From positions 4,854-68,853 of the forward strand of contig JBFLYD010000009.1 in the NCBI GenBank assembly GCA_040756905.1: a stretch of 64,000 nucleotides of DNA, read 5' to 3'. Shown piece by piece: positions 29,311 through 59,533 of the stretch. The notes under the pieces were generated by a model. It did no database searches, had not been told where the DNA came from, and was given only the letters and a program-made list of their open reading frames with translations. The translations under genes were made by a program, and so were the position numbers. The first letter of the stretch is position 1, and the number at the start of each line of letters is the position of its first letter. This DNA comes from Acidobacteriota bacterium (lineage in GTDB: Bacteria; Acidobacteriota; Aminicenantia; JBFLYD01).

Positions 29311-29383
29311 TTTGTAATTTGCTGATATATAAGTATTTATTAAATTAAGGTTAGAATTTTAAGTTAACTTTTGTTAACCTAGG

Positions 29384-29427
29384 GTCGTGTCACTTAGTCT
29401 CCTTTTGTTGCTCTTTTGTGACACGAC
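29384..29427 (-). terminator. Perfect 10-bp inverted repeat (gtcgtgtcac / gtgacacgac) with a 24-nt loop between convergent ends of adjacent minus-strand genes; possible terminator or regulatory hairpin.
   Basis: Read directly from the sequence. No clear U-tract follows. Confidence 0.3.
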
Positions 29428-29436
29428 ACTTGATTA

Positions 29437-29982
29437 TTATCTTATCCATCCCGGAAGTGCCCCAGCTTTTCTCGCCTTTTCCGGGAGTTCATCGAGTTCT
29501 TTTTTTGCTTTCGCTAAATCATCCTTTGCTTTTTCCAATTTTTCTGTTGTTTCCTGAATTCTGAATTGAACCTGTTCTCTCTGGTAAGGGTCGTCCAAAG
29601 CATAGAAATCCATCCAGAGGCTGTTCAACTTTGTTTGGAGTAAATCTGCATATTCTTGAGCTTTTCGATATTTTTCTTCAAGCTCTTTTTTCAGGTTTCT
29701 CCAGTAAGCTTCATCCTTTTTTTCCGATTGATTTTCTTGAGATTCTTTTGTTTCTTCTTTTATTCCATAAATTTCTAAATTCTGATAGATATTTTGAATT
29801 ATATTGATTTCCCTTTTTGATTCTCTCTTTAAAATTTCATTCGTGATTATTCTGGCTTTTTCTTTGACTTTCTCCCTTCGCTCTTTTTCATTTTTTGCCA
29901 CATCAACAATGCTTTGAGAAAAGAGGAGAGCTGGGGCTATAAAGCCAAAAAATATCCTTAAAGAAAAATTCTTAAATTTCAT
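29437..29982 (-). CDS. Secreted coiled-coil protein, function unknown.
   Basis: Signal peptide followed by K/E-rich heptad-like sequence. 181 aa. Confidence 0.5.
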   Translation of the reverse strand: MKFKNFSLRIFFGFIAPALLFSQSIVDVAKNEKERREKVKEKARIITNEILKRESKREINIIQNIYQNLEIYGIKEETKESQENQSEKKDEAYWRNLKKELEEKYRKAQEYADLLQTKLNSLWMDFYALDDPYQREQVQFRIQETTEKLEKAKDDLAKAKKELDELPEKARKAGALPGWIR

Positions 29983-30315: not shown

Positions 30316-32187
30316 TCATGGCGATAATTTATAAAGGGCTAAGAAATCTGAAATTGCCTTTTCCTTTATTTCTTCTAAAAGATCTATTCTTTCTTTATTT
30401 TCATTCGTTGATTTTAGAAATAAGATTTCATGATTAAGATAATAAATAGCCTCCTGAAATGCTGAATGATAATTTTCTCCTCTTAAATGGTCTAAAAAAG
30501 TCGATGAAACATTTCGAAGTTCAGGTTTGACAGAAGGATTCAGAAGAGAATGTAAATATTCACTCTTTGGTATTTCGTAGGCTACAATTTTATGGGTAAA
30601 TTCTGGAAATCCATCTGTTTCAAAACCCCACAAGATTCTTATCCTGTCAAAGAGGTTATTGTTTTTTATCCTTTCAAAAGCCTCAGTCCCTGGATATGGG
30701 ATAAGGAACGGGCTATTCGGGAGAATGAAAAAAGTCTCTTTAAATCTCAGTTTCATTTTCAGGATGAAGTGAAATTCTTGAAGGAATTCCCCCCAATCCG
30801 ATTCCATGTCTGAAAGTATCCAGTAATGATAATTAAGGATTTTTTTTCTATCGAGATGATTAAGAAGCCCTTCGATAATTTTTTGATTTCTTATGGATTT
30901 ATTAAGTCTTTTTGCCCGACTTTCAATAAACACATCTGTTCCAATCCACAAAAGAGGATTTTCTTTAAAATATAATTTTTTATCTGAAAGAATTTCAATC
31001 AGTTTTTTATCTGGTTCATGTCTTCTTATTAATGAGCTGATTGAAGTCTGGATCCCCCAGAGAGAAAACCCTCTTTTTTTTATTTCTTCTATAACATTTA
31101 GGAAATGGTCTAAATTCAAAAGGATGTCATCATCGTTAATGTTAACTGTGAATGCCTGAGGGTTTACTATATTCATTTTTTTTAGTCTTTCTAAAAAATT
31201 GTCGATCCATCTTCCAACTTTTTCTGTAGTAATTGGCTTAAATTTTTTTCCATGGACATGGCTGCAGAAAATGCAGCTTCTCGGGCATCCTCTTGAAGTA
31301 TTGAGCTCAAGCCCATAATTTAAAAGTTCCTCTGGGATTTCCTCCACAGATATATCAACATTTTTCAGGTTTGGTTTGTTTATTTCGGAGAATGAGGATG
31401 AGATTAAGAGGTTTTCATTCCTGTAGAGATAACCCTTTAAATTTAAAAGATTTGATGCATTCTCCTCAGGATAGTCTAAAAATGATAGAACCTCAGGAAA
31501 TGCTTCCTCTGCTTCTCCTCTTATGATTAAATTTGCTTCTTGAAGATGGGAAGACACTGCTAAGGGAGAAAGAGTTGCCATAGGTCCTCCAACAGCGATT
31601 TTATTTTTAAATCTTCTCTTTAAATGGGAAATTGCTTTTGAGACAGGAAAAAAAAGGTCATCGTAAAGAGGAAAACCTATCCAGTCAAAATTATTGAGTG
31701 TATCCTCTTCGATTGAAAATCTGGGATAGGGTTCGTATAAAATCTCTGAAAGAGTGATTTTTACATTGTGCCCTTTTTTGTTCAGAGAATCTGCTAAAAA
31801 AAGAAGTCCAGGAGGAGCACTCATCGACCTCCATCTAAAATCAGTTTTTAGATAAGGAAAAATTAATAGGATGTTTTTGTTTGTCTTAATTGGACTGTTA
31901 GTTTTAAAAATATCATTTTCAATTTTTTCTGTTTTTATAGAAAGTTCATTAACAAATTGAGTTAATTTGTTTAGAGGTAATCTGGCACGCTCAAGAGGGA
32001 TTTTTAATCTTATAAATTTTTGAGATGAAATTACTTCTGGAGAATCCTTTTCACATATAATGATATTCCCATGGACAGGAAGATTTTCTTTGAATATGTT
32101 GTTTAAAGCTAAAAGTATCCTTAATGGAATACAATGGTGAACTCTGATTTTTTCCCATTTTATAATCCATTTTCCATGGAATGCCAT
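30316..32187 (-). CDS. B12-binding domain radical SAM protein.
   Basis: Radical SAM cluster motif TSRGCPRSCIFCSH (CxxxCxxC) and an upstream B12-binding-like region (ILLIFPY...SAPPGLLFLADSL). 623 aa. Confidence 0.7.
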   Translation of the reverse strand: MAFHGKWIIKWEKIRVHHCIPLRILLALNNIFKENLPVHGNIIICEKDSPEVISSQKFIRLKIPLERARLPLNKLTQFVNELSIKTEKIENDIFKTNSPIKTNKNILLIFPYLKTDFRWRSMSAPPGLLFLADSLNKKGHNVKITLSEILYEPYPRFSIEEDTLNNFDWIGFPLYDDLFFPVSKAISHLKRRFKNKIAVGGPMATLSPLAVSSHLQEANLIIRGEAEEAFPEVLSFLDYPEENASNLLNLKGYLYRNENLLISSSFSEINKPNLKNVDISVEEIPEELLNYGLELNTSRGCPRSCIFCSHVHGKKFKPITTEKVGRWIDNFLERLKKMNIVNPQAFTVNINDDDILLNLDHFLNVIEEIKKRGFSLWGIQTSISSLIRRHEPDKKLIEILSDKKLYFKENPLLWIGTDVFIESRAKRLNKSIRNQKIIEGLLNHLDRKKILNYHYWILSDMESDWGEFLQEFHFILKMKLRFKETFFILPNSPFLIPYPGTEAFERIKNNNLFDRIRILWGFETDGFPEFTHKIVAYEIPKSEYLHSLLNPSVKPELRNVSSTFLDHLRGENYHSAFQEAIYYLNHEILFLKSTNENKERIDLLEEIKEKAISDFLALYKLSP

Positions 32188-33236
32188 TAATTTTTAATGA
32201 TGTATTCAATAATAGCATCTGTCATTTCTTCTGTTCCAACGAAATTCTCTGGGTTTATATCTTTTGTTACCTTTTTACCCTCTTTCAATACTGATAAAAC
32301 AGCATTTTCAATTTTTTTTGATGCTTCAATTTCACCTAAATATTCCAGCATCATCGATGATGCCAAAATCATTGCACATGGGTTTGCGATATTTTTCCCG
32401 GCTATGTCAGGAGCACTTCCATGGGCTGTCTCAAAAATAGCAATTTCATATCCAATGTTAGCTCCAGGTGCAAAACCCAGGCCTCCGATCAGGCCAGCAG
32501 CTAAATCAGAGAGAATATCTCCGAAAAGATTTGTGGTAACTATGACATCAAATTGATTCGGGTTCAAAACCATCTGCATACACATGTTGTCAATAATTTT
32601 ATCTTCGCATTCGATTTCTGGGTAGTCTTTGCAAATGTTTTTAGCTATCTCGAGGAAAAGTCCGCTTGTAAATTTAAGTATGTTTGCCTTATGGACAATC
32701 GTTACTTTTTTTCTTTGTTTTTTTCTTGCGTAATCATAAGCAGCTTTTATGATTCTTTCTGAGCCTGTTCTTGTTACAATTCCAATTGTTTCTGCAGCGC
32801 TTCGAGCTGCATCGATGTAATGTTCAACTCCACTGTAAAACTCTTCTGTATTCTCCCGGAATATGACAAGGTCAACATTTTCATACCTGCTTTTTACTCC
32901 CTGAAATGATTTAACAGGCCTCAAATTAATAAAGAGGTCAAGTTCTTTTCTTAAAGCTACATTGGCGCTTCTAAACCCTGAACCAACCGGAGTTGTAAGA
33001 GGTCCTTTCAGAGCTACTTTGTTTCTTTTAATGGATTCAAGTGTTTCTTCTGGTAATGGGTCTTTATGTCTTTCTATTCCTTGAATTCCTGCTTCAACTA
33101 CTTCCCAGTCTATCTTAACACCAGTGGCTTCAATAACTCTCTTTGCTGCATCGGTTATACTCGGTCCGATGCCATCTCCCGGGATTAAAGTAACAATAGT
33201 CATCTTCTCTCCTTTTTCAAATTTTATAGCTTCCAA
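32187..33236 (-). CDS. Isocitrate/homoisocitrate/3-isopropylmalate dehydrogenase family enzyme (NAD-dependent beta-decarboxylating dehydrogenase).
   Basis: IPGDGIGPSI, NLFGDILSDLAAGLIGGLGFAPGANIG and the HGSAPDIAGK signature motifs. Confidence 0.8.
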   Translation of the reverse strand: MEAIKFEKGEKMTIVTLIPGDGIGPSITDAAKRVIEATGVKIDWEVVEAGIQGIERHKDPLPEETLESIKRNKVALKGPLTTPVGSGFRSANVALRKELDLFINLRPVKSFQGVKSRYENVDLVIFRENTEEFYSGVEHYIDAARSAAETIGIVTRTGSERIIKAAYDYARKKQRKKVTIVHKANILKFTSGLFLEIAKNICKDYPEIECEDKIIDNMCMQMVLNPNQFDVIVTTNLFGDILSDLAAGLIGGLGFAPGANIGYEIAIFETAHGSAPDIAGKNIANPCAMILASSMMLEYLGEIEASKKIENAVLSVLKEGKKVTKDINPENFVGTEEMTDAIIEYIIKN

Positions 33237-33329
33237 ATGTATTTATCAATTATTTAGGATTGGTTGACCATCTATTATTTTTATGTTAATGGACTATTTA
33301 GAGGAAAATTAAAGAGAAAAAAATAGAAA

Positions 33330-34982
33330 ATGGATAAAAATTTCAATTCAGAGAAGAGAAAATCCTTAAATTTTCTTTTAAATAAAAAATACAAACATAA
33401 AATTGTAATAATTCTTTCAATCCTTTGCTTTCTTTATTTTTGCCCTGGAATTATCTACTCAGAAGAGAAGAAAACCCTTCCACCAAAATACAAAAAATGG
33501 CTCGATGAGGAAGTAGTTTACATTATAACACCAAAGGAGAGGGAGATATTTTTAAAACTTGAATCTGATGAAATGAGGGATAAATTTATTGAGGAGTTCT
33601 GGAGACAGAGAGACCCAACATCTGGAACTCCAAAGAATGAATTTAAAGAGGAACATTACAGAAGAATAGATTATGCAAATAAATGGTTTGGAAGGCACGC
33701 CTCAAGACCTGGATGGATGACTGACCAGGGAAGAATATATATAATATTGGGAGAACCAATTGAGAGGAAAAGGTTCGATGCAGAACAAGAGGTTTATCCG
33801 TGCGAGTTATGGTTTTACTCTGGAGATGTAAGACTTGGTCTTGAACCTTTCTTTTATATACTTTTTTATAGAAGATTTGGAGCAGGAGAATATAAACTTT
33901 ACAGCCCAACGGTCGATGGAAGAGAAAGATTGATTAAAGATGAAATCTTGTTAACAGAACCGGTTCTAACAAAGTTAAAACGCGATTTCGATCCCTTACA
34001 TAAAATAGATTATGACCTCTATTTAGCATCACTATCTCTTATACCACAACCAGGAGGAAAGATAAAAAGTCCTATGGAATCGGATAAATTGCTAGCAAAC
34101 ATTCCACTTTATCCTCATAAGCTCATAAAAGATGAATATGTAGATGAATTCTTAAAGACTGAAGGAAAGGTGGAGGTAGATTACTCAGTAAATTTAATCT
34201 CAGGAACACTTCAAACAGAAATGATAGAAGATGAAAAAGGAAACTATTTTCTCCACTACTCATTTTCCCCAAAATCCCTCTCTTTAATCTCCTATGAGGA
34301 TAAATACTCCGCCCACTGGAGAGTAAACGGAACAATTAAAACTCAGGATGGAAAAACAACATACCAGATAGATGAAGAATCTTCAATTGAGCTTACAAAA
34401 AAAGACATAAAAATAGCAAGAACACATCCTTTCTCCTATGAAAGTTTTCTGCCCCTTTCTCCGGGAAAATATATACTGAATATTCTCTTTCAGAACACAG
34501 TCTCAAAAGAATTTGTTCCCTTTGAAAGGGTAATCCTCATAGAGGATAAAGAAGAAAGAATAAACAACTTGGTATTAGGATATGATATAAAAAAAGATAC
34601 TGAAAAGGATGTAAAAAAACCATTTAAAATAGATAATCAGAGAATCTATCCTTCAATTGAAAATTTATTTTCAGAGAAAGATAAACTCATCATATTCACC
34701 CAGCTAAGGAAAAAAGAAGGATATGAGGAGAACTTGAAATTAGTGCTTAAGATAAACAAATCTGATGAGGCTTTATGGAGAAAAGATTTAGAGATCTGGG
34801 ATACTCCTTCTCTTTTAAATGTATTTGAATCGCTCTCTCTTGAGAAATTCTCTCCTGGAAAATACACAATAATTGTAACTTTTTTTAAAAAAGAAAAGGT
34901 AATTGATTCAAAGGAGGAGGAGTTTTCAATACAGAAAGAAAGAGTTCCCAGACAGTGGATAATTTCAAAAATCTGGAAATAA
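33330..34982 (+). CDS. GWxTD domain-containing protein.
   Basis: N-terminal TM/signal, then WRQRDP...RPGWMTDQGRIYIILGEP containing the GWxTD motif. 550 aa. Confidence 0.65.
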   Translation: MDKNFNSEKRKSLNFLLNKKYKHKIVIILSILCFLYFCPGIIYSEEKKTLPPKYKKWLDEEVVYIITPKEREIFLKLESDEMRDKFIEEFWRQRDPTSGTPKNEFKEEHYRRIDYANKWFGRHASRPGWMTDQGRIYIILGEPIERKRFDAEQEVYPCELWFYSGDVRLGLEPFFYILFYRRFGAGEYKLYSPTVDGRERLIKDEILLTEPVLTKLKRDFDPLHKIDYDLYLASLSLIPQPGGKIKSPMESDKLLANIPLYPHKLIKDEYVDEFLKTEGKVEVDYSVNLISGTLQTEMIEDEKGNYFLHYSFSPKSLSLISYEDKYSAHWRVNGTIKTQDGKTTYQIDEESSIELTKKDIKIARTHPFSYESFLPLSPGKYILNILFQNTVSKEFVPFERVILIEDKEERINNLVLGYDIKKDTEKDVKKPFKIDNQRIYPSIENLFSEKDKLIIFTQLRKKEGYEENLKLVLKINKSDEALWRKDLEIWDTPSLLNVFESLSLEKFSPGKYTIIVTFFKKEKVIDSKEEEFSIQKERVPRQWIISKIWK

Positions 34983-35057
34983 ATTCTTAAATTTTCTTTA
35001 AATGTGTGATACTATTTTATTGCGTTATGAAATGACAGAGGAACAAGACAAAACAAA

Positions 35058-37145: not shown

Positions 37146-38897
37146 ATGAAGATTCCTTCATATATAAAAATGTTAGTTCTTTTGTGTATTTGTTTTTTTA
37201 TTTTAGTTAATGGCTATTCAGCCCGAGCAGACGAGGTAATAGCTATTAAAGGTGGAAAAATTTTTACTGTGACAAAAGGAATATTAGAAGATGGAACTGT
37301 AATTTTGAAGAATGGGTTGATTGAAGCTGTTGGAAAGGACATTCCTATCCCTGCTGGAGCCAAAATAATAGAAGCAAAAGATTTATACGTATATCCAGGA
37401 TTGATTGATTCCCATTCCACAATTGGAATCTCAGAGATAAAACCAAAGGCAGAAGAGGTTCCACCTTCTGGTCAGCCAATTGAAGAGAGAGAAAAAATAG
37501 AACCTTTGAATGCAGATAAGTTTGTAATTGACAGTTTGAACCCAAAAGCTCCGAACATATCAACAGCAAGAAATTTAGGTATTACAACAACGTTGTCAGC
37601 ATTAGCCCAGGGAGTTTTCACGGGTCAGAGCGCGATAATAAATTTAGCTGGAGAAACTCCTGGAGAAATGCTTCTAAAATCTCCTGCAGGTATTAATCTT
37701 GAATTTAACATGTTAAGAGGGGCGTACCCTTCAACATTGATGGGTGTTTTAGCTTTTATCAGACAGACTTTTATTGATGCTGATTATTATCAGAAAGAAT
37801 GGGAGTATTACAACAAATACAAAAAAGGGATAAGAAGACCTGTTTATAACAAACCTCTTGAGTCTCTTCAATCAGCTTTAAACAGAAAAATGCCAATAAT
37901 TTTTTCAGTAAACAAAGAAAATGACATAAAAAGATCTATCAAAATTGCGAAGGAATTCAATTTAAACTATCTATTGAGCGGAGTTACAGAGGGGTGGAGA
38001 GTTTTAGATTTATTAAAGAAAGAGAAAAGACCTGTATTGTTAAGCCTTAATTTTCCAGAACCAAAAGATACAACTGGATACAGTTTTCTTTTGAAGGTTG
38101 ACCTTCCGATTGAAAAAGAGGAAAAGCCAAAAGAAGAAAAAAAGCCTTCCATAAAGAAAGAGGCAAAGGAGGAGAAAAAAGAAGAGGAGAAGAAAGAAGA
38201 CGAGGAAATTTGGAAGCTTATTTATGGAAATGCAGCTTCCCTTCACAAAGCAGGGATTAAGTTCGCCTTTACTGGATATGGGTTAAAACAGTACGGAGAT
38301 ATCATGAAGAATGTGTCAAAGGCAATCGAGAATGGATTGCCTGCGGAAGAAGCTCTTAAAGCATTTACAATTTATCCAGCTGAGATATTCGGAATCTCTG
38401 ACCAGGTTGGAAGCATTGAAAAAGGGAAGATAGCAAACATAGTGGTTACAAAGGGAGAGTTGTTTCAAAAAGATACAACTTTAAAATATTTATTTATCGA
38501 TGGAAAAGAGATTGAAGTTAAAGAAGCCGTGAAAAAAGAGGGAATCAAGCCACCCACGGTTGATGTAACAGGAACATGGAATGTTTCAATAATGTCCCCA
38601 GGGGGTGAGATGTCTGCTACGATGACTCTTACTCAATCAGGGTCTGATGTATCAGGAGAGTTTAAAAGTCAGATGGGAATAACACAGATAAGTAATGGAG
38701 TTGTGAGCGGAAATGAAATCAGTTTTTCAATACTTATTCCAACGACTGACCCACCGATGGAAGTTTTTTTCTCTGGAAAAGTAGAGGGAAATTCTATAAC
38801 TGGGACGATAGACCTTGGACCAATGGGCACTGCAGAATGGAAAGCAACCCGTCCAGGCAATTTAAATTTACTTTTTGAAAGTGCTGGAAATAATTAA
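37146..38897 (+). CDS. Secreted amidohydrolase-family protein with an internal K/E-rich insertion and an extra C-terminal domain.
   Basis: Signal peptide, then IKGGKIFTVTKG...ILKNGLIEAVGKD...PGLIDSHS (metal-binding HxH region). [32 protein letters not shown] insertion. The C-terminal roughly 130 aa are not present in the two paralogues. Confidence 0.7.
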   Translation: MKIPSYIKMLVLLCICFFILVNGYSARADEVIAIKGGKIFTVTKGILEDGTVILKNGLIEAVGKDIPIPAGAKIIEAKDLYVYPGLIDSHSTIGISEIKPKAEEVPPSGQPIEEREKIEPLNADKFVIDSLNPKAPNISTARNLGITTTLSALAQGVFTGQSAIINLAGETPGEMLLKSPAGINLEFNMLRGAYPSTLMGVLAFIRQTFIDADYYQKEWEYYNKYKKGIRRPVYNKPLESLQSALNRKMPIIFSVNKENDIKRSIKIAKEFNLNYLLSGVTEGWRVLDLLKKEKRPVLLSLNFPEPKDTTGYSFLLKVDLPIEKEEKPKEEKKPSIKKEAKEEKKEEEKKEDEEIWKLIYGNAASLHKAGIKFAFTGYGLKQYGDIMKNVSKAIENGLPAEEALKAFTIYPAEIFGISDQVGSIEKGKIANIVVTKGELFQKDTTLKYLFIDGKEIEVKEAVKKEGIKPPTVDVTGTWNVSIMSPGGEMSATMTLTQSGSDVSGEFKSQMGITQISNGVVSGNEISFSILIPTTDPPMEVFFSGKVEGNSITGTIDLGPMGTAEWKATRPGNLNLLFESAGNN

Positions 38898-38905
38898 AAG
38901 GAGAG

Positions 38906-40237
38906 ATGAAAATGGGAAAAAATAAATCAAAATATATTTTATTTATTGTATTTATTTTATTTTCATTTTTTTGGGTAAGAGCAGAAGAAAAATCAGCCGG
39001 TGATAACCTTTTTATTTCTAAGGGGACTATTCTTACGATTACAAAGGGAAAGATTGAAGGTGGTTCTATTTTGATAAAGAATGGAAAAATCTTTGCAGTT
39101 GGTAAAGATTTAAAGCCACCTGAGGGAATTAAAATTATCGATGCAACAGGTAAGTATGTAATGCCAGGCATAATCGATTCCCATTCTCACATGGCAATCG
39201 ACAGAGGAATAAATGAATCAACTTCTCAGGTAACTCCCCAGGTAAACATTCAGGATGTGATAAAACATGATGACATTGCGATATACAGAGCACTGGCAGG
39301 AGGAACCACCTGCGTTCAACCTCTTCATGGAAGTGCAAATGTAATTGGAGGACATAATGCTGTTATAAAACTAAAATGGGGGAAGCCGCCTGAAGAACTT
39401 TTAGTTAAAGATTCAATGCAGGGAATAAAATTTGCCCTCGGAGAAAATCCAAAGAAGTCTAATTTTCCTATGCCCAGAGGCCCTGAATTTCCCAATACAA
39501 GAATGGGGATAGAATTTGTTATAAGAGATTCTTTCAATCATGCTTTAGAGTACATGAAAAAATGGGATGAATACCAGAAGAAAAAGTCATCTTTAAAGAA
39601 GGGAGAAATTCCACCCCTTCCCCCAAAAAGAGATTTAAAATTAGAAGCACTGGCTGATATATTAAAAAGAAACCTTGGGATCGTTTGCCATGGATACAGA
39701 GCTGATGAACTTTTGATGATGCTTAAAACTGCAGATGAGTATGGAGCAAAGGTTGTCTCTTTTGAACATTGTCTTGAAGGATACAAAGTTGCCGATGAGA
39801 TTGCAAAACATGGAACAGTTGCCTCGATATTTGCTGATAACTGGGCTTATAAAATCGAAGCTTTTGATGCAATTCCCTTCAATGCAGCCATTCTTACAGA
39901 AAGAGGAGTTGCTGTAACAGTTAATTCAGATTCAGATGAAAGAGTGAGGAGACTCTATCAGGATGCGGCAAAAACCATGAAGTATGGAGGATTAAGTGAA
40001 GAAGAGGCTCTCAAAACAATTACAATAAATCCTGCAAAGATGCTCGGAATTGACCACAGATGTGGAAGTATTGAGGTTGGGAAAGATGGAGATTTGGCTA
40101 TTTTTAATGGACATCCCTTGAGCGTCTATTCAAAAGTTTTGATGACGATAATTGAGGGAGAGGTTTATTTTGACATAGAAAAAGCTATAACCGCTGAAAA
40201 AGCCCTTGCGATGGCTAAAGAAAAAGAGAAAAAGTGA
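38906..40237 (+). CDS. Secreted amidohydrolase-family protein (paralogue).
   Basis: KGTILTITKGKIEGGSILIKNGKIFAVGKDL...PGIIDSHSHMAIDRG. 443 aa. Confidence 0.75.
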   Translation: MKMGKNKSKYILFIVFILFSFFWVRAEEKSAGDNLFISKGTILTITKGKIEGGSILIKNGKIFAVGKDLKPPEGIKIIDATGKYVMPGIIDSHSHMAIDRGINESTSQVTPQVNIQDVIKHDDIAIYRALAGGTTCVQPLHGSANVIGGHNAVIKLKWGKPPEELLVKDSMQGIKFALGENPKKSNFPMPRGPEFPNTRMGIEFVIRDSFNHALEYMKKWDEYQKKKSSLKKGEIPPLPPKRDLKLEALADILKRNLGIVCHGYRADELLMMLKTADEYGAKVVSFEHCLEGYKVADEIAKHGTVASIFADNWAYKIEAFDAIPFNAAILTERGVAVTVNSDSDERVRRLYQDAAKTMKYGGLSEEEALKTITINPAKMLGIDHRCGSIEVGKDGDLAIFNGHPLSVYSKVLMTIIEGEVYFDIEKAITAEKALAMAKEKEKK

Positions 40238-41559
40238 GGTGGAAGATGAAAGGAAAAATTTCTATTAAATTCATTGGATTATTATGCTTTCTTTTAATAC
40301 TGATAAATTATGTTTATTCGGAAGGCAATAAGGGATATGCGATTGTAAATGCATATATTTTCCCGGTGACATCGGCTCCGATTGAAAATGGTATATTGCT
40401 TATTAAAGACGACAAAATTGAAGCAATAGGAAAGGATTTGGAAGTTCCAGAAGGGTATGAAATAATAAATGCAAAAGGTCTATATGTTTATCCAGGGCTA
40501 ATTGATTCCTCCTCTTTTCTCGGTCTTTCTGAAATAGGTTCTGTTCGAGCAACAGTTGATACCTTTGAAATTGGAAATTTTAAGCCCCATATAAAAGCTG
40601 AGGTTGCGATAAATCCCCATAGTGAGTTAATTCCAGTTACAAGGGTTAATGGAATTGCAACTGTTCTTGTTTCTCCGAGAGGAGGCACGATAGCAGGACA
40701 GAGCGCTCTTGTAAACTTAATAGGCTGGACTCCTGAAGAGATGGTGTTGAAATCTCCAGCTGCCATTCACATTTCATATCCAAGAGTTATTGAGAGAAGG
40801 AGATTCGGAGCTCCAGGAGAAAAGCCCCAGGACGAAGCAGTGGCTCAAAAGCAATTGAAAGAATTGAAAGAATTTCTGGATAGAACAAAAAGATACATTG
40901 AAATCTGGGAAGCATACAATAAGGATAAAAAAGGCTCAATTCCTGAAAAAGACTTGATCCTGGAAGCTATGGCTCCTGCGTTAAAAGGAGAAATTCCTGT
41001 TGTAATTTCTGCAGATAAAGTAAAGGAGATAAAAGGAGCAATAGAACTTGCTGATGGATATAAAATGAAGCTCATTCTGAGTGGGGCATCTGAAGGCTGG
41101 AAGTGTGCAAAATTTATAGGAGAAAAAGGTGTTCCGGTGATACTCAGCTCTCTATTTTCTCTTCCGGGAGAAAAGGAACCTTATGATGCAATATACGCCA
41201 ATGCATCAATTCTTAATAAAGCAGGGGTAAAGGTAGTATTTTCCACTGAAAGCGCAAGCGATGTAAGAAATCTTCCCTATCAGGCTGGAACTGCCTCTGC
41301 CTATGGGCTTCCAAAAGAAGAAGCCCTGAAGGGCATAACGATATATCCTGCTGAAATTTTCGGGGTTCAGGATAAAATTGGGAGCTTGGAGAAAGGGAAA
41401 ATAGCCAACATAATTTTGACAGATGGAGACCCTCTGGAGATGAGAACACAAACAAAACATCTTTTTATAAAAGGGCAGAAACTTCCTCTTACAAGCAAGC
41501 ATATCGAACTGTATGAGAAATTCAGAAAAAGACCTTCCATAAAGTTTTTTAGCCGATAA
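40234..41559 (+). CDS. Secreted amidohydrolase-family protein (paralogue).
   Basis: AYIFPVTSAPIENGILLIKDDKIEAIGKDL...PGLIDSSS. 441 aa. Overlaps the previous gene by 4 nt. Confidence 0.7.
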   Translation: MRWKMKGKISIKFIGLLCFLLILINYVYSEGNKGYAIVNAYIFPVTSAPIENGILLIKDDKIEAIGKDLEVPEGYEIINAKGLYVYPGLIDSSSFLGLSEIGSVRATVDTFEIGNFKPHIKAEVAINPHSELIPVTRVNGIATVLVSPRGGTIAGQSALVNLIGWTPEEMVLKSPAAIHISYPRVIERRRFGAPGEKPQDEAVAQKQLKELKEFLDRTKRYIEIWEAYNKDKKGSIPEKDLILEAMAPALKGEIPVVISADKVKEIKGAIELADGYKMKLILSGASEGWKCAKFIGEKGVPVILSSLFSLPGEKEPYDAIYANASILNKAGVKVVFSTESASDVRNLPYQAGTASAYGLPKEEALKGITIYPAEIFGVQDKIGSLEKGKIANIILTDGDPLEMRTQTKHLFIKGQKLPLTSKHIELYEKFRKRPSIKFFSR

Positions 41560-41797
41560 AAAATTTGAGCAGCAAGAGTGACTTCGAAAACACGCTGTAT
41601 TTTCCCCAGTCCCGCACTAACTTATTATTACCTAAGTTAAGGAATTCATAATATCTCTACTCCCATCACTTAATTTTTTTGGAATAAATACAGTTAGTGC
41701 GGGAGCATTCATGCTTCGCTCTTCTCCTGAGTAAACTCAGGAGAAACCATGCCCGCTCCACATTCGTGACGGTTTTCTCGCCACCCTTGCTGCTCAG
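41560..41797 (+). mobile_element. Repeat family R1, full copy (about 238 bp), MITE-like, with roughly 25-bp imperfect terminal inverted repeats (GCAGCAAGRGTGACTTCGAAAAC ... GTTTTCTCGCCACCCTTGCTGC) and internal palindromes.
   Basis: Left end aaaaatttgagcagcaagagtgacttcgaaaacac and right end cgtgacggttttctcgccacccttgctgctca. Internal cccgcactaact/agttagtgcggg and ctcctgagtaaactcaggag palindromes. Copies and fragments at 44698-45013, 42826-42867, 23001-23061 and 13072-13107. Confidence 0.6.
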
Positions 41798-41899
41798 TAA
41801 AATTAGAGTAATTTCTGGTATATAATGAAATAATTGATTCCATTTTTTTATCATAAAATAAAATTGACGGAGGGAAGATAACACAGGTAAAATTGCAGG

Positions 41900-42817
41900 A
41901 TGGGAGAATGGCTGAGAGGAGATTTATTAGCTGAAGAAATTAAGGCAGAAATTCAGAGAGGATTAGAATCCTATAAGGAAAAAATCAAAAGGCCTCCTTA
42001 TTTAGTTGGAATTTTAATAGGTGAGAACCCCTCATCAAAAATTTATCTTAACATAAAAAAAAGGGAATGCGAGAAAATTGGAATCAAGTCAGAGATTGTA
42101 AAATTTTCTGAAGATGAAACAAGGGAAAATATATTAAATAAAATCAATGAATTGAATGATAATAGAGCGATAGATGGAATTCTGGTTCAGCTTCCAATCC
42201 CTTCTCATCTTGATACCCTTGAAATAATAAGTGCTTTAAGCCCTGATAAAGATGTGGATGGTTTTCACCCTGATAATGTTAGTAGAATATTCTATGCAAA
42301 GCCAGGGTTCAGACCTTGCACTCCTTTTGGAATTTTAGAGCTATTGAAAAGAAACAACATAAAGATAGAAGGAAAGAGGGCAGTTATAATAGGAAGGAGC
42401 TTTATCGTTGGAAAACCTTTAGGGTTGATGTTACTAAATGAGAACGCCACTTTGACTTTCTGCCATTCAAAGACAGAGAACTTAAAAGATGTGACAAGTT
42501 CTGCTGATATATTAATTGTGGCAATCGGGAAACCATGCTTTGTCAGAAAAGATTTTGTTAAACAGGGTGCTGTTGTTGTAGATGTCGGAATTAATCAGAT
42601 AACAGATTTGGCTGAGTTTAAAAGAATTTGTGGAGATAATGAGAAAAAAGAAGTTCAGATTAAAGAAAAAGGCAGCACTCTTGTTGGAGATGTTCACCCT
42701 GAGGTGATAGAAAAAGCTTCATTCCTTACCCCTGTTCCAGGAGGAGTTGGACCTTTAACAGTTGCAATGCTTTTAAAAAATACCTGGGAATCCTTTAGAA
42801 AAAGAGAAAATTTATAA
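41900..42817 (+). CDS. folD: Bifunctional methylenetetrahydrofolate dehydrogenase/methenyl-THF cyclohydrolase FolD.
   Basis: N-terminal YLVGILIGENPSSKIY, GILVQLPIP and PVPGGVGPLTVAMLL. Confidence 0.85.
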   Translation: MGEWLRGDLLAEEIKAEIQRGLESYKEKIKRPPYLVGILIGENPSSKIYLNIKKRECEKIGIKSEIVKFSEDETRENILNKINELNDNRAIDGILVQLPIPSHLDTLEIISALSPDKDVDGFHPDNVSRIFYAKPGFRPCTPFGILELLKRNNIKIEGKRAVIIGRSFIVGKPLGLMLLNENATLTFCHSKTENLKDVTSSADILIVAIGKPCFVRKDFVKQGAVVVDVGINQITDLAEFKRICGDNEKKEVQIKEKGSTLVGDVHPEVIEKASFLTPVPGGVGPLTVAMLLKNTWESFRKRENL

Positions 42818-42825
42818 ATTCTGAA

Positions 42826-42867
42826 GTGGCGGTTCTCAGGAACCTTCGGTTTCTCCGCCACCCTTCC
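42826..42867 (+). repeat. Repeat family R1 right-end fragment (hairpin gtggcgg-N22-ccgccac) immediately after the folD stop.
   Basis: gtggcggttctcaggaaccttcggtttctccgccacccttcc matches 23001-23061 (reverse complement) and the R1 right ends. Confidence 0.55.
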
Positions 42868-42878
42868 TTCTCACCTAA

Positions 42879-43028
42879 TACAAACGCAATAAATAATTTG
42901 TAGGGCAACCCTTCAGAGCCTGCCCCAAACCTTGCCCTGAACTTGTTTCATGGGTTGATTCGGGGGTTGCTTAATGCAAGGTTAAAGCCTTGCCCTACAT
43001 GTCAATTTATTTAATTCGTTTGTATTAA
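42879..43028 (+). mobile_element. Repeat family R2, longest copy (about 150 bp), MITE-like, with roughly 30-bp terminal inverted repeats (TACAAACGCAATAAATAATTTGTAGGGCAA ... TTGCCCTACATGTCAATTTATTTAATTCGTTTGTA).
   Basis: Shorter copies at 59447-59533 and 58652-58724 share the tgtagggcaa...ttgccctacatg palindromic core. Confidence 0.6.
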
Positions 43029-43054
43029 TAATTGTAGGAGAAAAGAGAGGGCAT

Positions 43055-43912
43055 TTAGATTCTCGGATTGGCGTAGCAATAAATACATGCATTCGGGCAT
43101 GGTTGAGTATAGCTACCTATGTCTATTGAAACAGTACAACCGCATTCTTTTCTTTGAGATGGGTCTTTTTTCGTAATAGCCTGTTTTTTTTCAGGGTGGA
43201 TTTTGCTAAGAAAATTTCCATCGATGCAGGAAGATTTTTTTATAAAAGAGATTTTTTCCAAAAATGGTTGGGAACAGGAGAAAATATTAATATTGTATTT
43301 ATATACTGTTTCCTCAATTTCATAGATGTCCTTTAACTTTTCTTCTTCAGGAGGATCTACATAATCTAAATTTAATTTTTTAGCTCTTTTGATACACTTT
43401 GGATAATATTGAACAAAACTCAGTCTTATATCTTTTATTCCAAATTTTGAAATTTCAGATATAATTTTTTCAAAATAAGTAAGATTGCTTTTTACTCCTC
43501 CATCTTCTCTCCAGTAAATTATCGGGTCGAACCTTATAGATATTCTTTCAGGAAGCTGAGAAATTTCTACCAATCTATCAATCTGGGCTAAAGCTTCACA
43601 CAAAGGAATAACTCCAGGTTCAATTCTGGTGCCTCCAAGACCAGTAATTGTAAAAAGAAAATACAGTTGGGCATATTCTTTTAATAAATCTAATAAGTTA
43701 TGCCTATTTTCGATAAGATTTTTAAAATTTTTGCTCCAGAGAACTATTGTATGGGTATTCGAGGGATTTAGATCTACAACATAAGAGTATTTGTAGGGTC
43801 CTATTACAATCGCTTTTCTATTTTTTAATGAATTTACTAACCAATCAGGGAAATGAGCAATTAAATCAGTTCTTCTTGAAGCGCTTATAATTCTATGTTC
43901 CTTGACTTTCAT
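43055..43912 (-). CDS. DUF1848-like protein.
   Basis: 285 aa. N-terminal IISASRRTDLIAHFPDWL and a C-terminal Cys cluster (CPNACIYC) resemble the DUF1848 family. Low certainty. Confidence 0.5.
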   Translation of the reverse strand: MKVKEHRIISASRRTDLIAHFPDWLVNSLKNRKAIVIGPYKYSYVVDLNPSNTHTIVLWSKNFKNLIENRHNLLDLLKEYAQLYFLFTITGLGGTRIEPGVIPLCEALAQIDRLVEISQLPERISIRFDPIIYWREDGGVKSNLTYFEKIISEISKFGIKDIRLSFVQYYPKCIKRAKKLNLDYVDPPEEEKLKDIYEIEETVYKYNINIFSCSQPFLEKISFIKKSSCIDGNFLSKIHPEKKQAITKKDPSQRKECGCTVSIDIGSYTQPCPNACIYCYANPRI

Positions 43913-43956
43913 TCTACTTCTTCTTATGATTTTAGATTATAAAGTAAAGGTTTTCA

Positions 43957-44691
43957 ATGTCAAAGCTTAATGCAAAAAATTTAGTTAAGAATTTTTCTGG
44001 CAGAAGGGTTGTCAACAATGTAAGCTTAGAGATAAATTCAGGTGAGGTTGTAGGGTTTTTAGGAAGAAACGGAGCAGGTAAAACAACTGTATTTCAAATT
44101 ATTGTCGGGCTGATAAAGCCCGATTTTGGGAAGATTTATGTGGATGAAGAAGATTATACTTATCTTCCATCGAGTTTGAGAGCAAGAAAGGGATTGGTTT
44201 ATCTTCCCCAGGAACATTCTGTTTTTTTAAAAGCAACAGTGGAAGAAAATCTTGAAATGATATTTCAAACAGTTAAACTTTCTTACATATCAAAGATTGA
44301 GAAGAAAAAAAATCTGATAAGAGATTTTAATTTAGGAGATATTTTACAACAGCCTGCTTTTACTCTTTCTGGTGGGGAAAAGAGAAGACTTGAGACAGCA
44401 AGAGCATTAATATTGAACCCTGTTTTTCTCTTTCTTGATGAGCCATTTTCAGGTATAGATCCCCTTACAGTTACAGAGATCCAGAAAATTATTCTTTTTC
44501 TAAAGGAGAAAGGAATAGGGGTGATTATTTCTGACCATAACGTGAGAGATACATTTGAAGTTACTGATAGAGCTTATATTATTCATGAGGGAGAGGTTGT
44601 AGTTTCAGGAATGCCTGAAGAACTATCCAAGAATAAAGAAGCAAAGAAAATATTTCTCGGCGAAAATTTCAAACTCGGCCAGGAAATATAA
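43957..44691 (+). CDS. lptB: LPS export ABC transporter ATP-binding protein LptB-like.
   Basis: Walker A GRNGAGKTT, LSGGEKRRLETARAL signature and Walker B LFLDEPFSGIDP. 244 aa. The RARKGLVYLPQE region is typical of LptB. Confidence 0.7.
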   Translation: MSKLNAKNLVKNFSGRRVVNNVSLEINSGEVVGFLGRNGAGKTTVFQIIVGLIKPDFGKIYVDEEDYTYLPSSLRARKGLVYLPQEHSVFLKATVEENLEMIFQTVKLSYISKIEKKKNLIRDFNLGDILQQPAFTLSGGEKRRLETARALILNPVFLFLDEPFSGIDPLTVTEIQKIILFLKEKGIGVIISDHNVRDTFEVTDRAYIIHEGEVVVSGMPEELSKNKEAKKIFLGENFKLGQEI

Positions 44692-44697
44692 ATCGTT

Positions 44698-45013
44698 TAA
44701 AAATTTGGGCAGCAAGGGTGACTTCGAAAACACTTATTAAGAAGGCAACCATCCCCTTCGCTCAGGATCTCCTCGCATCAAAATCTAAGCTCGTTCGCTC
44801 AAATAATCTCCTATCCCTTAGAGTCTTATCTTCTCTCATCTTTTAAATCCTCTCTCGCTCCCGTTCATTTCATCATTTCTCTTCCATTGATCTAAAATAT
44901 AGGAGATTATTCTCACTCACTTCGCAGATTTTTAGATGCTCGTCGATATATCGCTCAGAAGATGGTTGCCTTCTTTTTTTAATTAAGTTTTCTTCGCCAC
45001 CCTTGCTGCCCAT
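44698..45013 (+). mobile_element. Repeat family R1, second full copy (about 316 bp), inserted immediately after the lptB stop codon.
   Basis: Left end aaaaatttgggcagcaagggtgacttcgaaaacac and right end ttttcttcgccacccttgctgccca. Internal 13-bp perfect inverted repeat gaaggcaaccatc (44748) / gatggttgccttc (44961). Confidence 0.6.
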
Positions 45014-45041
45014 AATTATACTTGGTTAATCTTTTCTAATG

Positions 45042-45758
45042 CTAACTGTATATTTTGAAGGAAAGAATTGTTGTGATACTCAAAATTGCCAGTCTTAAAA
45101 GAAAAATTATCCCGAGAATTATCAGGGATTTTTTAAGAGAAAATTTCGTAAATTTAGAAACCCCAAAAGAGAGCACTATATATGACCATATTGTAAAAAA
45201 ATCTATAAAGGTTAAAACATGATAGATGGGGTCTTTGTATGTAAGTGCTGGGAAAAAAATCGAAATTCCTGTTGAAACAGTGAGATAAGTTTTCTTTAGC
45301 ATGACGAGAGCAGATTTAACCCCGCTTCCTAAAAAGTAGTCTATATAACTGGAATAAAGAGTAGCACACCAGAATTCTTTAAAACTTCCCTCACCTCCAA
45401 GCATCTTAATTATTATCGTTAATGTACCTGTGAAGATTAGAAATGGAAATATTAAAGCTATAAGTGAATTTATCAGAGTTTGAATGATTCTACTTTTCTC
45501 TCCTGGATTTGCTATCTTTTCCAGCTGTTCCTCAGTAATTCTTTGCGATAGTTTTGTGCTACTTTTTATCATTTCTACCCTGTCTTTAACCTGGATGGGA
45601 AAGGTGATGTAAGCAAAAATAATTGAAGTAATCAAGATTACTATAAATGGTTCATACCAGGGTGATTTTTCATGAAGTCTCTGCATTGTTTTTACAGGTT
45701 CAAAAAAAATTCCCATAAATCGAGAGAATCCATTGTTCATTCTTTTTTTTCTCCTCAA
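45042..45758 (-). CDS. Yip1-like polytopic membrane protein, last gene of the HlyD-ABC operon.
   Basis: 238 aa with six predicted TM helices after a roughly 38-aa N-terminal region. Confidence 0.5.
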   Translation of the reverse strand: MRRKKRMNNGFSRFMGIFFEPVKTMQRLHEKSPWYEPFIVILITSIIFAYITFPIQVKDRVEMIKSSTKLSQRITEEQLEKIANPGEKSRIIQTLINSLIALIFPFLIFTGTLTIIIKMLGGEGSFKEFWCATLYSSYIDYFLGSGVKSALVMLKKTYLTVSTGISIFFPALTYKDPIYHVLTFIDFFTIWSYIVLSFGVSKFTKFSLKKSLIILGIIFLLRLAILSITTILSFKIYS

Positions 45759-46469: not shown

Positions 46470-47645
46470 TTATTTTTTCTTGATTTTTACTCTATCTCCA
46501 TCTTTCAATTCTCTTAAAGATTTATAAGGTCCCACAACTATTGTATCTCCTTCTCTAAGCCCGGATAAAATCTCAACTCTCATTTCTCCCATTACACCCC
46601 TTTCTGCTTTCTGGAAAAAAACTTGAGAATCTTTAATAACAAAAATGCCTTCCTCCTCTTTTTTTTCTTCTTTTTTTTCTCTTACCACAACAGAGGATAT
46701 AGGGATCGTCAGCACTCCATTTCTAATGGCAGTGATTATATCAACCGATGAGGAGAGGCCGGGTTTTAATTGTTCGGGAGGATTTTTTAAAGTTATAACT
46801 ACCTTGAAATCTTTTGCCTCTTTTGTGGAAGTGCCCAATCCTTTCTCGATTGCAGAGCTTCCAATTTCTGTGACAAATCCCCTTAATTTTTTATCCGGCA
46901 AAGCATCAACTGTGATTTCGGTCTCATGACCTGCTCTTATTCCAACTATATCAGTTTCATCAACTTCAACTTCAACCTCCATTTCTGAAAGGTCTGCTAT
47001 TGTTAAAAGAACTGTTCCTGGGTTGTTCATGGTTCCTATAACTGCCACTTCTCCCTCTTCTACTTTGAGACTTGTTACCACACCGTTCAAAGGAGATTTG
47101 ATTATCGTTTTTTCAAAATTATCTTTTGAGCTTTTAAGGGAAGCCCTTGCCTGTTCAATTTTATATTTTAAGCTTTTTACCTGGGCAAGGTTCATTTCAT
47201 ACTGAGCTTTTGCATTTTCTAATTGTTCATCTGAGATAAGTTTTTCTTTGTGAAGTTGAGTGTACCTTTCAAAGGTATTTTTAGTTTTTTCCAGATTAAT
47301 CATTGTCTGGCGAAGGTCTTCTTCAAAGGAAAGAATGAGAGCTTTGTCCCGTTCAACATTTGCCTCGTACTGAGTTGAGTCGAGTTTCATCAGAATAGAA
47401 TTTTCACTTACCTTCTCTCCCTCTTTTACGTAGATTTTTTCAATCCTCCCTGGAATATGGGCAGAAATGTTAACATATTTTTTAGGTTTGATGGTTCCAG
47501 AAGCAGATACTTTTGAGATAAGGTTACTCTTTGTTACTTTCTCTGTTTCCACCTCAATAGGAGGTTTTCCCCGCCTAATGTTTAATAAAATTATGACAGA
47601 TATAACGACCATTACTACTGCAATGATTATTGTTTTCTTCTTCAT
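46470..47645 (-). CDS. HlyD/MacA-family periplasmic adaptor (membrane fusion protein).
   Basis: N-terminal TM, a coiled-coil hairpin region ([12 protein letters not shown]...[14 protein letters not shown]), then beta-barrel/lipoyl-like segments. 391 aa. Confidence 0.8.
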
Positions 47646-47714
47646 TTCTTTTCTCCGTTATCTTTCACTAAGATTATACGATATAATGTATTAAAAGTTT
47701 AAGATTATTTATTT

Positions 47715-47741
47715 TTGACAAAATTTTAGATAGAATATAAA
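47715..47741 (+). promoter_or_regulatory. Candidate promoter for the DUF465 gene.
   Basis: TTGACA, a spacer of 15-16 nt, then TATAAA. GGGGGT RBS before the ATG at 47822. Confidence 0.3.
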
Positions 47742-47821
47742 ATTCGATAAGTGAAAGAAATCTTAAACTTAGACAAGAGAAACAGGAAATTTCAAAATCA
47801 ATTGATAAATAAGGGGGTAAA

Positions 47822-48049
47822 ATGAAAGAAGAAGAAATTAAGAAGGTTCTTTTGAGTGAAAATGAAGAATTTAAAAAGCTGTATGACTCTCATCAAAAAT
47901 ATGAGAAAGAATTACAAGAATTATCATCAAAAAAATTTTTAACCGATGATGAGAGATTAGAGATTAAAAGGATTAAAAAAGAAAAATTGATCTTAAAAGA
48001 TAAAATGCAGTTGATTATGGAGCAATATCAAACATCGCTTAAAAAATAA
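47822..48049 (+). CDS. DUF465 (YdcH-like) small protein.
   Basis: 75 aa with EEFKKLYDSHQKYEKELQEL...LTDDERLEIKRIKKEKLILKD, typical of DUF465. Confidence 0.6.
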   Translation: MKEEEIKKVLLSENEEFKKLYDSHQKYEKELQELSSKKFLTDDERLEIKRIKKEKLILKDKMQLIMEQYQTSLKK

Positions 48050-58565: not shown

Positions 58566-58651
58566 AGGACAGATATTATATTTATTTTATTTTTATTTGT
58601 AAATTAATATGATTATCATTAGTGTTTATTATACTTATACCAATAATTAAT

Positions 58652-58724
58652 ATGTAGGGCAAGCCTTTAGGCTTGCTTATTTTGCAGGGCTAAAGCCCTG
58701 CCCTACATGAGTTTATTTATTGCC
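58652..58724 (+). repeat. Repeat family R2, short copy (about 73 bp).
   Basis: atgtagggcaagcctttaggcttgc...gcagggctaaagccctgccctacatga, a nested palindrome. Confidence 0.55.
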
Positions 58725-58756
58725 ATTAGTATAATAAAAAAGATAAACGTTATAAT

Positions 58757-59440
58757 TCAATTGGTTAATATATTCAAAATTTCAAAAGGGGTGTTAAAAA
58801 GATAATCAGGGTTTGCTTCCATTAATTTTTTCTTGCTCATAGTTCCCCATAAGGCTCCTCCTGTCACGACTCCTGCTAATCTTCCTGATGTAATGTCTAA
58901 AAAAGAATCTCCAACATGAAGCACATTTGAGGGAGAAATTTGAAGTTCTTTACATAATTTCAAAACTCCCTCAGGGCTTGGTTTTGGATTTTTTAAATCT
59001 TCACTTGAAACAAGAGAATCTATGTGTTCAGCTAATCCCTTCTCTTTGATTAAAAATAAGGAAAGCTCCCTTCCCCTTCCTGTAAATATTCCAATTTTCT
59101 TGTTTCTCCTCTTTATTTCAATGATTGTATCTGGGAATCCATCATATAAGTTTATTTCATCCAATCTATCCATAAACATTTTGAGATATTCATTGAAGCA
59201 TTTTTCTAAATCATCTTTTCTTACAAAATCTGAAAATATTTTCTTCTCAGAAGGTCCGAGGAGAAGATATATTTCATCGGGAGTGAAATCCCGCTTTCCC
59301 CATTTCTTTAAAACTTTTATAAAGGCATCTATCGTCACAGGGTAAGAATCAATTATGGTTCCATCGAGGTCAAATATAATTCCTTCAAATTTCATAGAGA
59401 AATATTTATTAAATATATAGTGCTCCTCATATAAAAACAA
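58757..59440 (-). CDS. HAD-superfamily hydrolase (subfamily IA, phosphatase-like).
   Basis: Motif I IIFDLDGTIIDS, motif II-like FTGRGRE, and a VGDS...D C-terminal motif. Confidence 0.75.
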   Translation of the reverse strand: MFLYEEHYIFNKYFSMKFEGIIFDLDGTIIDSYPVTIDAFIKVLKKWGKRDFTPDEIYLLLGPSEKKIFSDFVRKDDLEKCFNEYLKMFMDRLDEINLYDGFPDTIIEIKRRNKKIGIFTGRGRELSLFLIKEKGLAEHIDSLVSSEDLKNPKPSPEGVLKLCKELQISPSNVLHVGDSFLDITSGRLAGVVTGGALWGTMSKKKLMEANPDYLFNTPFEILNILTN

Positions 59441-59446
59441 TAAATA

Positions 59447-59533
59447 ATTTGTAGGGCAACCCTTTAGGGTTGCTTAATGCAAGGCTAAAGCCATGCCCTA
59501 CATGTCAACTTATTTAATTCGTTTGTATTAAAT
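59447..59533 (+). repeat. Repeat family R2, short copy (about 87 bp).
   Basis: acaataaataatttgtagggcaaccctttagggttgcttaatgcaaggctaaagccatgccctacatgtcaacttatttaattcgtttgtatta matches R2 at 42879-43028 with the central segment deleted. Confidence 0.6.

Follow-up and report, generated by a model that had tools for sequence, protein, structure and literature searches.

The R1 repeat and its copies

The window analysed here is a 64 kb stretch of a single Acidobacteriota metagenome-assembled genome (MAG), with a GC content of ~33%. It carries a small non-coding repeat family, named R1, which lies just behind the stop codons of an amidohydrolase gene, folD, lptB and a gene encoding a DUF4097 protein. 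Two long copies (c1 and c2) and two short copies (S3 and F4) were studied:

41566-41796, + strand: long copy c1, 231 nt, TG...CA
41566-41591: left arm of c1, TGAGCAGCAAGAGTGACTTCGAAAAC
41772-41796: right arm of c1, GTTTTCTCGCCACCCTTGCTGCTCA
44706-45012, + strand: long copy c2, 307 nt
44706-44731: left arm of c2, TGGGCAGCAAGGGTGACTTCGAAAAC
44987-45012: right arm of c2, GTTTTCTTCGCCACCCTTGCTGCCCA
42823-42873, + strand: short copy S3, 5 nt past the FolD stop, with a copy of a second family (R2) adjoining without a gap
23004-23064, - strand: one-armed remnant F4, 6-9 nt past the DUF4097 stop
R1 end sequence: TGRGCAGCAAGGGTG

An original prediction, made from the letters of the window, had described a MITE-like repeat family, dispersed and bounded by terminal inverted repeats, and the recurrence of the ends bears out that a dispersed repeat of this build, which is non-coding, exists. 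The left-end motif GCAGCAAGRGTGACTTCGAAAAC occurs at exactly two sites, 41569-41591 and 44709-44731, where 100 shuffles predict 0. For the right end, a scan with the pattern TTTCTN{0,1}CGCCACCCTTNCTKCYCA yielded four sites in the window, again with 0 expected:

41774-41796, + strand: right end of c1
44989-45012, + strand: right end of c2
42850-42873, + strand: right end of S3
23004-23026, - strand: right end of F4

With the four right ends as its profile, nhmmer regained these 4 sites together with the two left arms (inverted), and found nothing else in the 64 kb window and nothing in the contigs of relatives described below.

The inverted ends of about 25 bp proposed earlier are real. As a correction, the inverted repeat reaches outward to TG...CA, at 41566/41796 in c1 and 44706/45012 in c2, and the outer ends read TGRGCAGC.../...GCTGCYCA. 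On the - strand the unit reads TGRGCAGCAAGGGTGGCGAGAAAAC ... GTTTTCGAAGTCACYCTTGCTGCYCA. BLAST (word size 7) aligned the right sides of c1 and c2 along 26 nt at 92%. The left sides aligned along 40 nt at 90%, counting an A/T-rich flank of 12 nt that the two copies have in common (41554-41565, CGATAAAAAATT; 44694-44705, CGTTTAAAAATT) and that in c1 includes the amidohydrolase stop codon itself. The sequence shared per end is only ~26-35 nt. The arms, 26 nt each, pair on the - strand as a 17-bp stem plus a 6-bp stem, and directly after this closing stem the - strand reads AAATTTTT(T) in both long copies. Three substitutions in all separate the arms of c1 from those of c2: a compensatory pair across the arms (A41568-T41794 in c1, G44708-C45010 in c2), and a third one that reads as an A.C mismatch on the + strand and as a G.U pair on the - strand.

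S3 and F4 correspond to the right-end fragments that had been noted behind the folD and DUF4097 genes. In S3 a GC stem of 7 bp (GTGGCGG/CCGCCAC) encloses a loop insert of 16 nt, AGGAACCTTCGGTTTC, and is followed by the R1 3' tail CCTTCCTTCTCA. F4 is 89.6% identical to S3 across 48 nt and holds the same insert, which in both copies sits in a small hairpin beside the right end. Only the right end of R1 carries such a local hairpin (GTGRCGG...CGCCAC). F4 also has GCTCCRCATTCGTGACGG, along with the right end, in common with c1. A left arm was not found in S3 or F4, where the right end alone is kept; the two are decayed singlets, each made up of the right end and its small local hairpin.

Coding potential in R1 is limited to short open reading frames (ORFs), none of them conserved between copies. 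The NCBI numbering of FolD (MEW6455298) and LptB (MEW6455300) allows for one gene between the two and therefore leaves no room for a coding sequence in R1.

The interiors of the long copies are unrelated

Whereas the interiors of c1 and c2 had been called partly different, we found them to be wholly different. BLAST at word size 7 matched the ends only, and the two spacers, of 180 and 255 nt, are mutually unrelated. Their contents, and a related fragment elsewhere in the window, are as follows:

41611-41744, + strand: hairpin modules of the c1 interior, neither found in c2
41611-41703: c1 hairpin 1, 93 nt, closed by CCCGCACTAACT/AGTTAGTGCGGG (41611-41622/41692-41703)
41723-41744: c1 hairpin 2, TCTCCTGAG/CTCAGGAGA
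44739-44975: R3, a long imperfect palindrome between the R1 arms of c2
13072-13118, + strand: one-ended R3 fragment, whose end directly meets the stop codon (13119-13121, - strand) of a gene for a UbiA-family prenyltransferase

The palindromes in c1 (41611-41622/41692-41703 and 41723-41744) are those pointed out previously. R3 has an outer stem of 19 bp (AAGAAGGCAACCATCTTCT) with two stems inside it, of 14 and 9 bp, and its 78-nt centre (44808-44885) contains 28 C and 4 G, ranking second in C-over-G among the + strand stretches of the window. The segment at 13072-13107 had been assigned to the R1 interior. It matches only the interior of c2 (44931-44957, 27 nt at 96%), with a looser likeness up to 13118, and the fragment therefore belongs to a separate family, R3, that is nested in c2.

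As the interiors are unrelated and S3 and F4 are one-ended, the conserved unit is the pair of inverted ends of ~26 nt and not the whole 238 bp. This departs from the view of the 238-bp and 316-bp sequences as a single repeated MITE (a miniature transposable element with inverted repeats), for only the ends are common to them. The long copies are thus mosaics, in which common ends surround unrelated hairpin modules. That the same ends enclose unrelated modules, one of which is an independent repeat, fits insertion of elements into one another.

R1 copies follow stop codons in one polarity

All four R1 copies begin 5-14 nt past a stop codon, in good agreement with the placement next to stops that had been predicted. 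The stops are:

41557-41559: amidohydrolase, upstream of c1
44689-44691: LptB (TIGR04406, 307.7 bits), upstream of c2
42815-42817: FolD, upstream of S3
23071-23073, - strand: DUF4097 protein, upstream of F4

The four proteins are unrelated, which excludes segmental duplication as the source of this arrangement. The R3 fragment and 3/3 copies of R2 likewise lie 0-21 nt from stop codons, and the fact that these families are placed like R1 suggests a general process.

These observations bear on the idea that R1 is debris of local duplication and decay, a single ancestral hairpin copied by local recombination within a 22-kb neighbourhood, with neither mobility nor function. Three of the four copies do lie within 3.5 kb, the public collections searched (which do not hold the source MAG) contained 0 copies, and the window has no convincing target-site duplication and no transposase among the 57 ORFs scanned. 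Against this, four unrelated genes precede the copies and their flanks were not duplicated along with them, one copy (F4) sits 18 kb from the others and is inverted, and R2 and R3 have the same placement. We find this explanation highly improbable.

The cumulative GC skew of the window has its minimum at ~33 kb, where gene orientation switches from - to +. A link between R1 polarity and a replication origin was considered and rejected. No dnaA is present around this skew turn (~32000-35000); the products encoded there are an aldehyde dehydrogenase, a GWxTD protein, a UPF0047 protein and others. The skew may turn simply because gene orientation switches, or through the purine bias of coding strands. 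Since gene direction and GC skew switch together at ~33 kb, gene polarity and replication polarity are inseparable here.

Three tandem amidohydrolase paralogues (37146-41559) stand ahead of folD (41900-42817). In the nearest relatives (65% FolD identity) folD directly follows purA, which indicates that gene order has been rearranged next to the repeats. Elsewhere in the window, a 10-bp perfect stem (GTGTCGTGTCAC...GTGACACGAC; 29311-29436) with a 24-nt loop and no T tract starts 1 nt past the stop of a - strand ORF (29437..29982).

Folding and strand composition

That R1 is a structured element held up for the long copies, which fold far beyond dinucleotide shuffles (z -7.9 to -10.9). The minimum free energy (MFE) of c1 is -77.7 kcal/mol on the + strand (z -7.9) and -99.5 kcal/mol on the - strand (z -8.9). 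For c2 the values are -92 kcal/mol (z -9.3) and -123.7 kcal/mol (z -10.9), respectively. S3 reaches -19.1 kcal/mol on the + strand (z -3.6), and F4 folds no better than its shuffles (z ~0).

R1 is richer in GC than the ~33% of the window, with 41-44% in the long and 56-57% in the short copies. Read in the sense direction of the upstream gene, all four copies have more C than G and more T than A. The GC skew in this direction is -0.18 to -0.38 in R1, compared with +0.17 to +0.24 in the flanking genes.

A functional antisense strand would account for some of this, be it as a structured antisense RNA, as a terminator for the opposite direction or as the single-stranded DNA (ssDNA) form in a strand-specific transposition. 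The - strand folds 21-31 kcal/mol better than the + strand and has 12 G.U pairs vs 1. In both long copies AAATTTTT(T) comes right after its 17-bp closing stem, and in that orientation a convergent - strand gene lies upstream of c2 and of S3. Selection for the antisense fold at first looked strong on the G.U count and the energy gap, and was set aside when it proved to be largely an effect of composition. The - strand keeps an advantage of 13-18 kcal/mol when shuffled, so that most of the gap between the strands is a matter of composition, and the z-scores are similar. The arm-to-arm count of 14:4 for R1 compares with 10:5 in R2, which served as a control family. The short copies show no preference for the - strand, c1 and F4 have neither a gene nor a promoter-like site that could drive - strand transcription, and Rfam is blank on either strand. 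We therefore regard a role of the antisense strand as very unlikely.

R1 is not a classical terminator or a known RNA

The original prediction also proposed that the element might supply terminator hairpins. However, a U/T-tract was not found after the closing stem of R1 on the sense strand, which past the stem continues as GTAAAATTAG (c1) or TAATTATACT (c2); the T-run AAATTTTT is on the antisense strand only. A terminator scan left the closing stems of R1 unmatched, its sole match within R1 being the loop hairpin of S3 (42831-42844). Hairpin-plus-T terminators are not enriched between 36000 and 50000 (12 found vs 9.3 expected from shuffles). Most gene 3' ends in the window are without a strong hairpin, and the strongest 3'-end structures are those of the repeat families. 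A promoter-like site for folD was seen at 41864-41893, downstream of c1.

The suggestion of a structured small RNA fared no better. At gathering thresholds, only tRNA-Ala (9642-9714) passed in an Rfam search of the whole window, and at E<10 the region 41500-45100 gave chance-level matches only, far under threshold. No clear promoter for an R1 small RNA was seen.

The same data speak to the possibility that R1 is a host-selected RNA module acting from the sense strand at gene 3' ends to block read-through, stabilise the mRNA or load Rho, with repetitiveness as a secondary trait. Such a module would explain why all copies are 5-14 nt past stops in a single polarity, why C exceeds G on the sense strand in 4/4 copies (skew -0.18 to -0.38), and why the 78-nt centre of c2 (28 C, 4 G) is carried as a loop by a long stem. 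The lack of terminator enrichment (12 vs 9.3), the many gene ends without a strong hairpin and the promoter-like site of folD downstream of c1 would also be in accordance with it. The sense strand nevertheless has no U-tract after the stem, and Rho normally needs unstructured RNA whereas R1 is heavily paired. F4 keeps its sequence though its fold is not significant (z ~0), and S3 and F4 keep the 3' tail of the right arm without a pairing partner, which points to shared descent and not to structural selection. On these grounds we consider a host-selected module rather unlikely.

Searches beyond the window

The source lineage is sparsely represented. All of the MAG proteins looked up (7/7) are singletons at 90% identity, and the nearest matches of FolD have 49% identity in GTDB and 65-66% as the best of any collection. 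The contigs of relatives are not syntenic with the window; folD there comes after purA, and they offer no usable empty site.

The exact left end of R1 gave 0 matches in genome contigs and 0 in metagenome contigs, collections that do not include the source MAG. A looser right-end pattern gave 3 metagenome matches, all GC-rich, unrelated to R1 and probably due to chance. Two scans of viral collections and a blastn search of plasmids and phages each returned 0 matches to R1.

R1 compared with known mobile elements

In size (231 and 307 nt), non-coding nature and terminal inverted repeats R1 conforms to MITEs, and in AT-richness it does not. Bacterial MITEs such as Correia, ERIC, QMITE and Chunjie are <500 bp long with inverted repeats of 4-30 bp, their transcripts fold into stable stem-loops, copies in which truncation has removed one end grow similar to repetitive extragenic palindromic (REP) sequences, and ERIC copies at gene 3' ends have orientation-dependent effects on mRNA (PMC10969869). 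R1 is likewise <500 bp, non-coding and bounded by terminal inverted repeats. It differs in having neither demonstrable direct repeats nor a known related insertion sequence (IS), in not being AT-rich and in that its copies are alike at the ends only, even within the family.

A classical MITE would make the 238-bp and 316-bp units internal-deletion derivatives of an IS, moved by a DDE transposase that recognises the inverted ends with TG...CA. The inverted repeats of 23-26 nt with their TG...CA termini and the non-coding length below 500 bp agree with this, and type II MITEs have only the inverted repeats in common with the parent IS (PMC10969869). The flanks are equivocal: judged against intergenic 12-mer pairs, the direct repeat AAAATT on either side of c1 has p ~0.03, but the flanks of c2 have only AATT in common (p ~0.37), and the target-site duplications looked for under the original prediction are not convincing. 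Moreover, the interiors are palindromic and one is an independent repeat, which is unexpected for deletion derivatives of a transposase gene, and R1 is richer in GC than its genome where MITEs are typically AT-rich (PMC10969869). The window ORFs scanned include no transposase, likeness to the Tn3 family is not significant, and a 5-bp duplication is missing (PMC4133298). In our view a classical MITE is an unlikely description of R1.

Two further element classes were tried and rejected. Integron attC sites have outer cores of the form RYYYAAC...GTTRRRY, are ~57-141 bp long and are found with intI nearby. In R1 the RYYYAAC/GTTRRRY cores are absent, the lengths of 231 and 307 are wrong, and no integrase is encoded in the window. 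The sole AAC...GTT is internal (CGAAAAC/GTTTTCT) and without the YYY/RRR pattern. The neighbours are the housekeeping genes for FolD and LptB, and the only trait in common is a fixed polarity behind an ORF.

The second class, TIMEs (miniature elements that derive from Tn3 and carry inverted repeats), has 38-bp inverted repeats of the Tn3 family and an AT-rich target duplication of 5-6 bp (PMC4133298). The R1 arms aligned to four Tn3-family inverted repeats with z <=2.2, which is not significant given 16 comparisons. A 5-bp duplication is not seen either, as the 5-nt flanks are AATTT/AGTAA in c1 and AATTT/ATAAT in c2.

R1 resembles REPINs in architecture

In REPINs (REP doublets forming hairpins) a pair of inverted ends is conserved, and of the spacer between them only the capacity to fold into a hairpin is kept; compensatory changes occur, as do singlets left by decay and copies inserted within or alongside others (PMC3116915). 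R1 is similar in its inverted ends, its compensatory stem change and its one-ended remnants, and also in being extragenic, inside or next to other elements, and predicted to form a hairpin in ssDNA or mRNA. The defining REPIN trait of inverted conserved ends that pair across a spacer is thus present, with one compensatory pair, while a short spacer of fixed length and a palindrome in each end are absent. Instead, R1 spacers are unrelated modules of 180-255 nt. REPINs are also moved by a REP-associated tyrosine transposase (RAYT), and no RAYT is visible in the window. By this comparison REPINs are the closest architecture to R1.

The pneumococcal repeats BOX, RUP and SPRITE form clusters and are found inserted in each other, and an enrichment of SPRITE at the 3' ends of coding sequences comes with a target-site duplication that is not definable (PMC3049150). 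Like R1 they are small and non-coding with strong predicted folds, and BOX is modular, at 67-637 bp. SPRITE, in contrast, is AT-rich and terminator-like with a long T tract, whereas R1 is GC-rich for its genome and lacks a T tract on the sense strand. None of the three has sequence similarity to R1, and their host belongs to another phylum.

Bacterial interspersed mosaic elements (BIMEs) of E. coli, which lie in 3' untranslated regions (3'-UTRs), line up alternating REPs in tandem, joined by defined linkers. They share with R1 the mosaic of palindromic units with other motifs and the location in 3' untranslated sequence; R1 is a nested foldback, while BIMEs are tandem. Both the kind of element and its placement have precedents in print, and R1 looks like a selfish repeat of an ordinary bacterial sort and no new kind of system.

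Proposed spread of a mosaic repeat to gene 3' ends

On balance, and by no means firmly, we read R1 as a lineage-specific, non-coding palindromic mosaic repeat of the REPIN/MITE type, which would be moved in trans, be tolerated or targeted at gene 3' ends and be co-transcribed as 3'-UTR hairpins. Copies would have spread at the DNA level through an enzyme encoded elsewhere in the genome. Their persistence a few nt after stops may reflect a preferred target, or the tolerance of insertions at such sites. R1 is probably co-transcribed with the upstream gene, where it is predicted to form a large 3'-UTR stem-loop. This stem-loop would not act as a classical hairpin-plus-U-tract terminator and may slow read-through or protect the 3' end of the mRNA.

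Several observations weigh against this interpretation. The census of the window is small, with 2 complete and 2 partial copies of which three lie within 3.5 kb, and the collections searched beyond it, in which the source MAG is not included, gave no further R1 copy. Neither R1 nor R2 nor R3 was found in seven contigs of relatives (~65% FolD identity). The partner transposase sought as a corollary of the original prediction did not turn up: the 57 window ORFs scanned against Pfam include 0 transposases, integrases or RAYT/Y1_Tnp proteins. RAYT genes are single-copy, so one could sit elsewhere in the genome. A clear target-site duplication is missing, with nothing consistent in length or position between c1 and c2. 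The polarity relative to the upstream gene is the same in 4/4 copies, which corresponds to p = 0.125 only. The spacers of 180-255 nt are far longer than those of described REPINs. Finally, no empty site is at hand, so that mobility is wholly an inference.

A more ambitious version would make R1 strand-specific, inserted or selected directly after stops in a fixed polarity. The pyrimidine-rich sense strand and the better-folding antisense strand would then reflect either ssDNA transposition that targets gene 3' ends, or an undescribed module of Acidobacteriota that insulates transcription, with a C-rich loop on a long stem in a genome largely without classical terminators. We consider this quite unlikely. 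Only two features, its polarity and the richness of its sense strand in pyrimidines, could lift R1 above the ordinary.

Under the reading of R1 as a mosaic repeat moved in trans, current understanding is unchanged. Beyond cultured model bacteria, catalogues of small palindromic repeats are poor, and the present case indicates that REPIN/MITE-like elements, as nested mosaics at gene 3' ends, occur in an Acidobacteriota lineage known from one MAG. Such repeats break assemblies and can serve as strain markers. Repeats of the R1 type may also shape 3'-UTR structure where classical terminators look rare.

R2 and other repeats in the window

The second repeat family, R2, has three copies of 107-160 nt:

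42874-43033: R2a, adjoining S3 without a gap
58628-58740: R2
59425-59531: R2

R2 has AT-rich terminal inverted repeats (TAATACAAACG.AAT.AAATAA) and a core of two inverted units, each composed of GTAG and a small hairpin (TGTAGGGCAACCCTTTAGGGTTGC ... GCAAGGCTAAAGCCATGCCCTACA). The hairpins are compensatory between copies (GCAACCC/GGGTTGC vs GCAAGCC/GGCTTGC), and every copy has the stop of a - strand gene 5-21 nt away. GTAG with a hairpin after it is the signature of REP/RAYT systems. As R2 carries this signature twice and in inverted orientation, it looks like a true REPIN. The ends of R1 are without the GTAG-plus-hairpin layout, and R2 is the more REPIN-like of the two.

Additional repeats were noted in intergenic regions. 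Two 23-nt inverted arms (3397-3419/3492-3514; GGGTCAGATCTTCATTATTCATT...), 96% complementary and 72 nt apart, lie at 3397-3514 within a divergent intergenic region of 561 nt (3135-3695). AT-rich intergenic stretches with 61-66% identity (7228-7561 vs 9172-9506, and 4503-4627 vs 7552-7683) make up the intergenic regions on the sides of a DNA methylase gene and of tRNA-Ala, which are unusually long. A self-complementary AT-rich stretch of ~220 nt (47627-47844; 62.7% along its length) occupies the divergent intergenic region between genes for a HlyD-family protein and phosphatidylserine decarboxylase.

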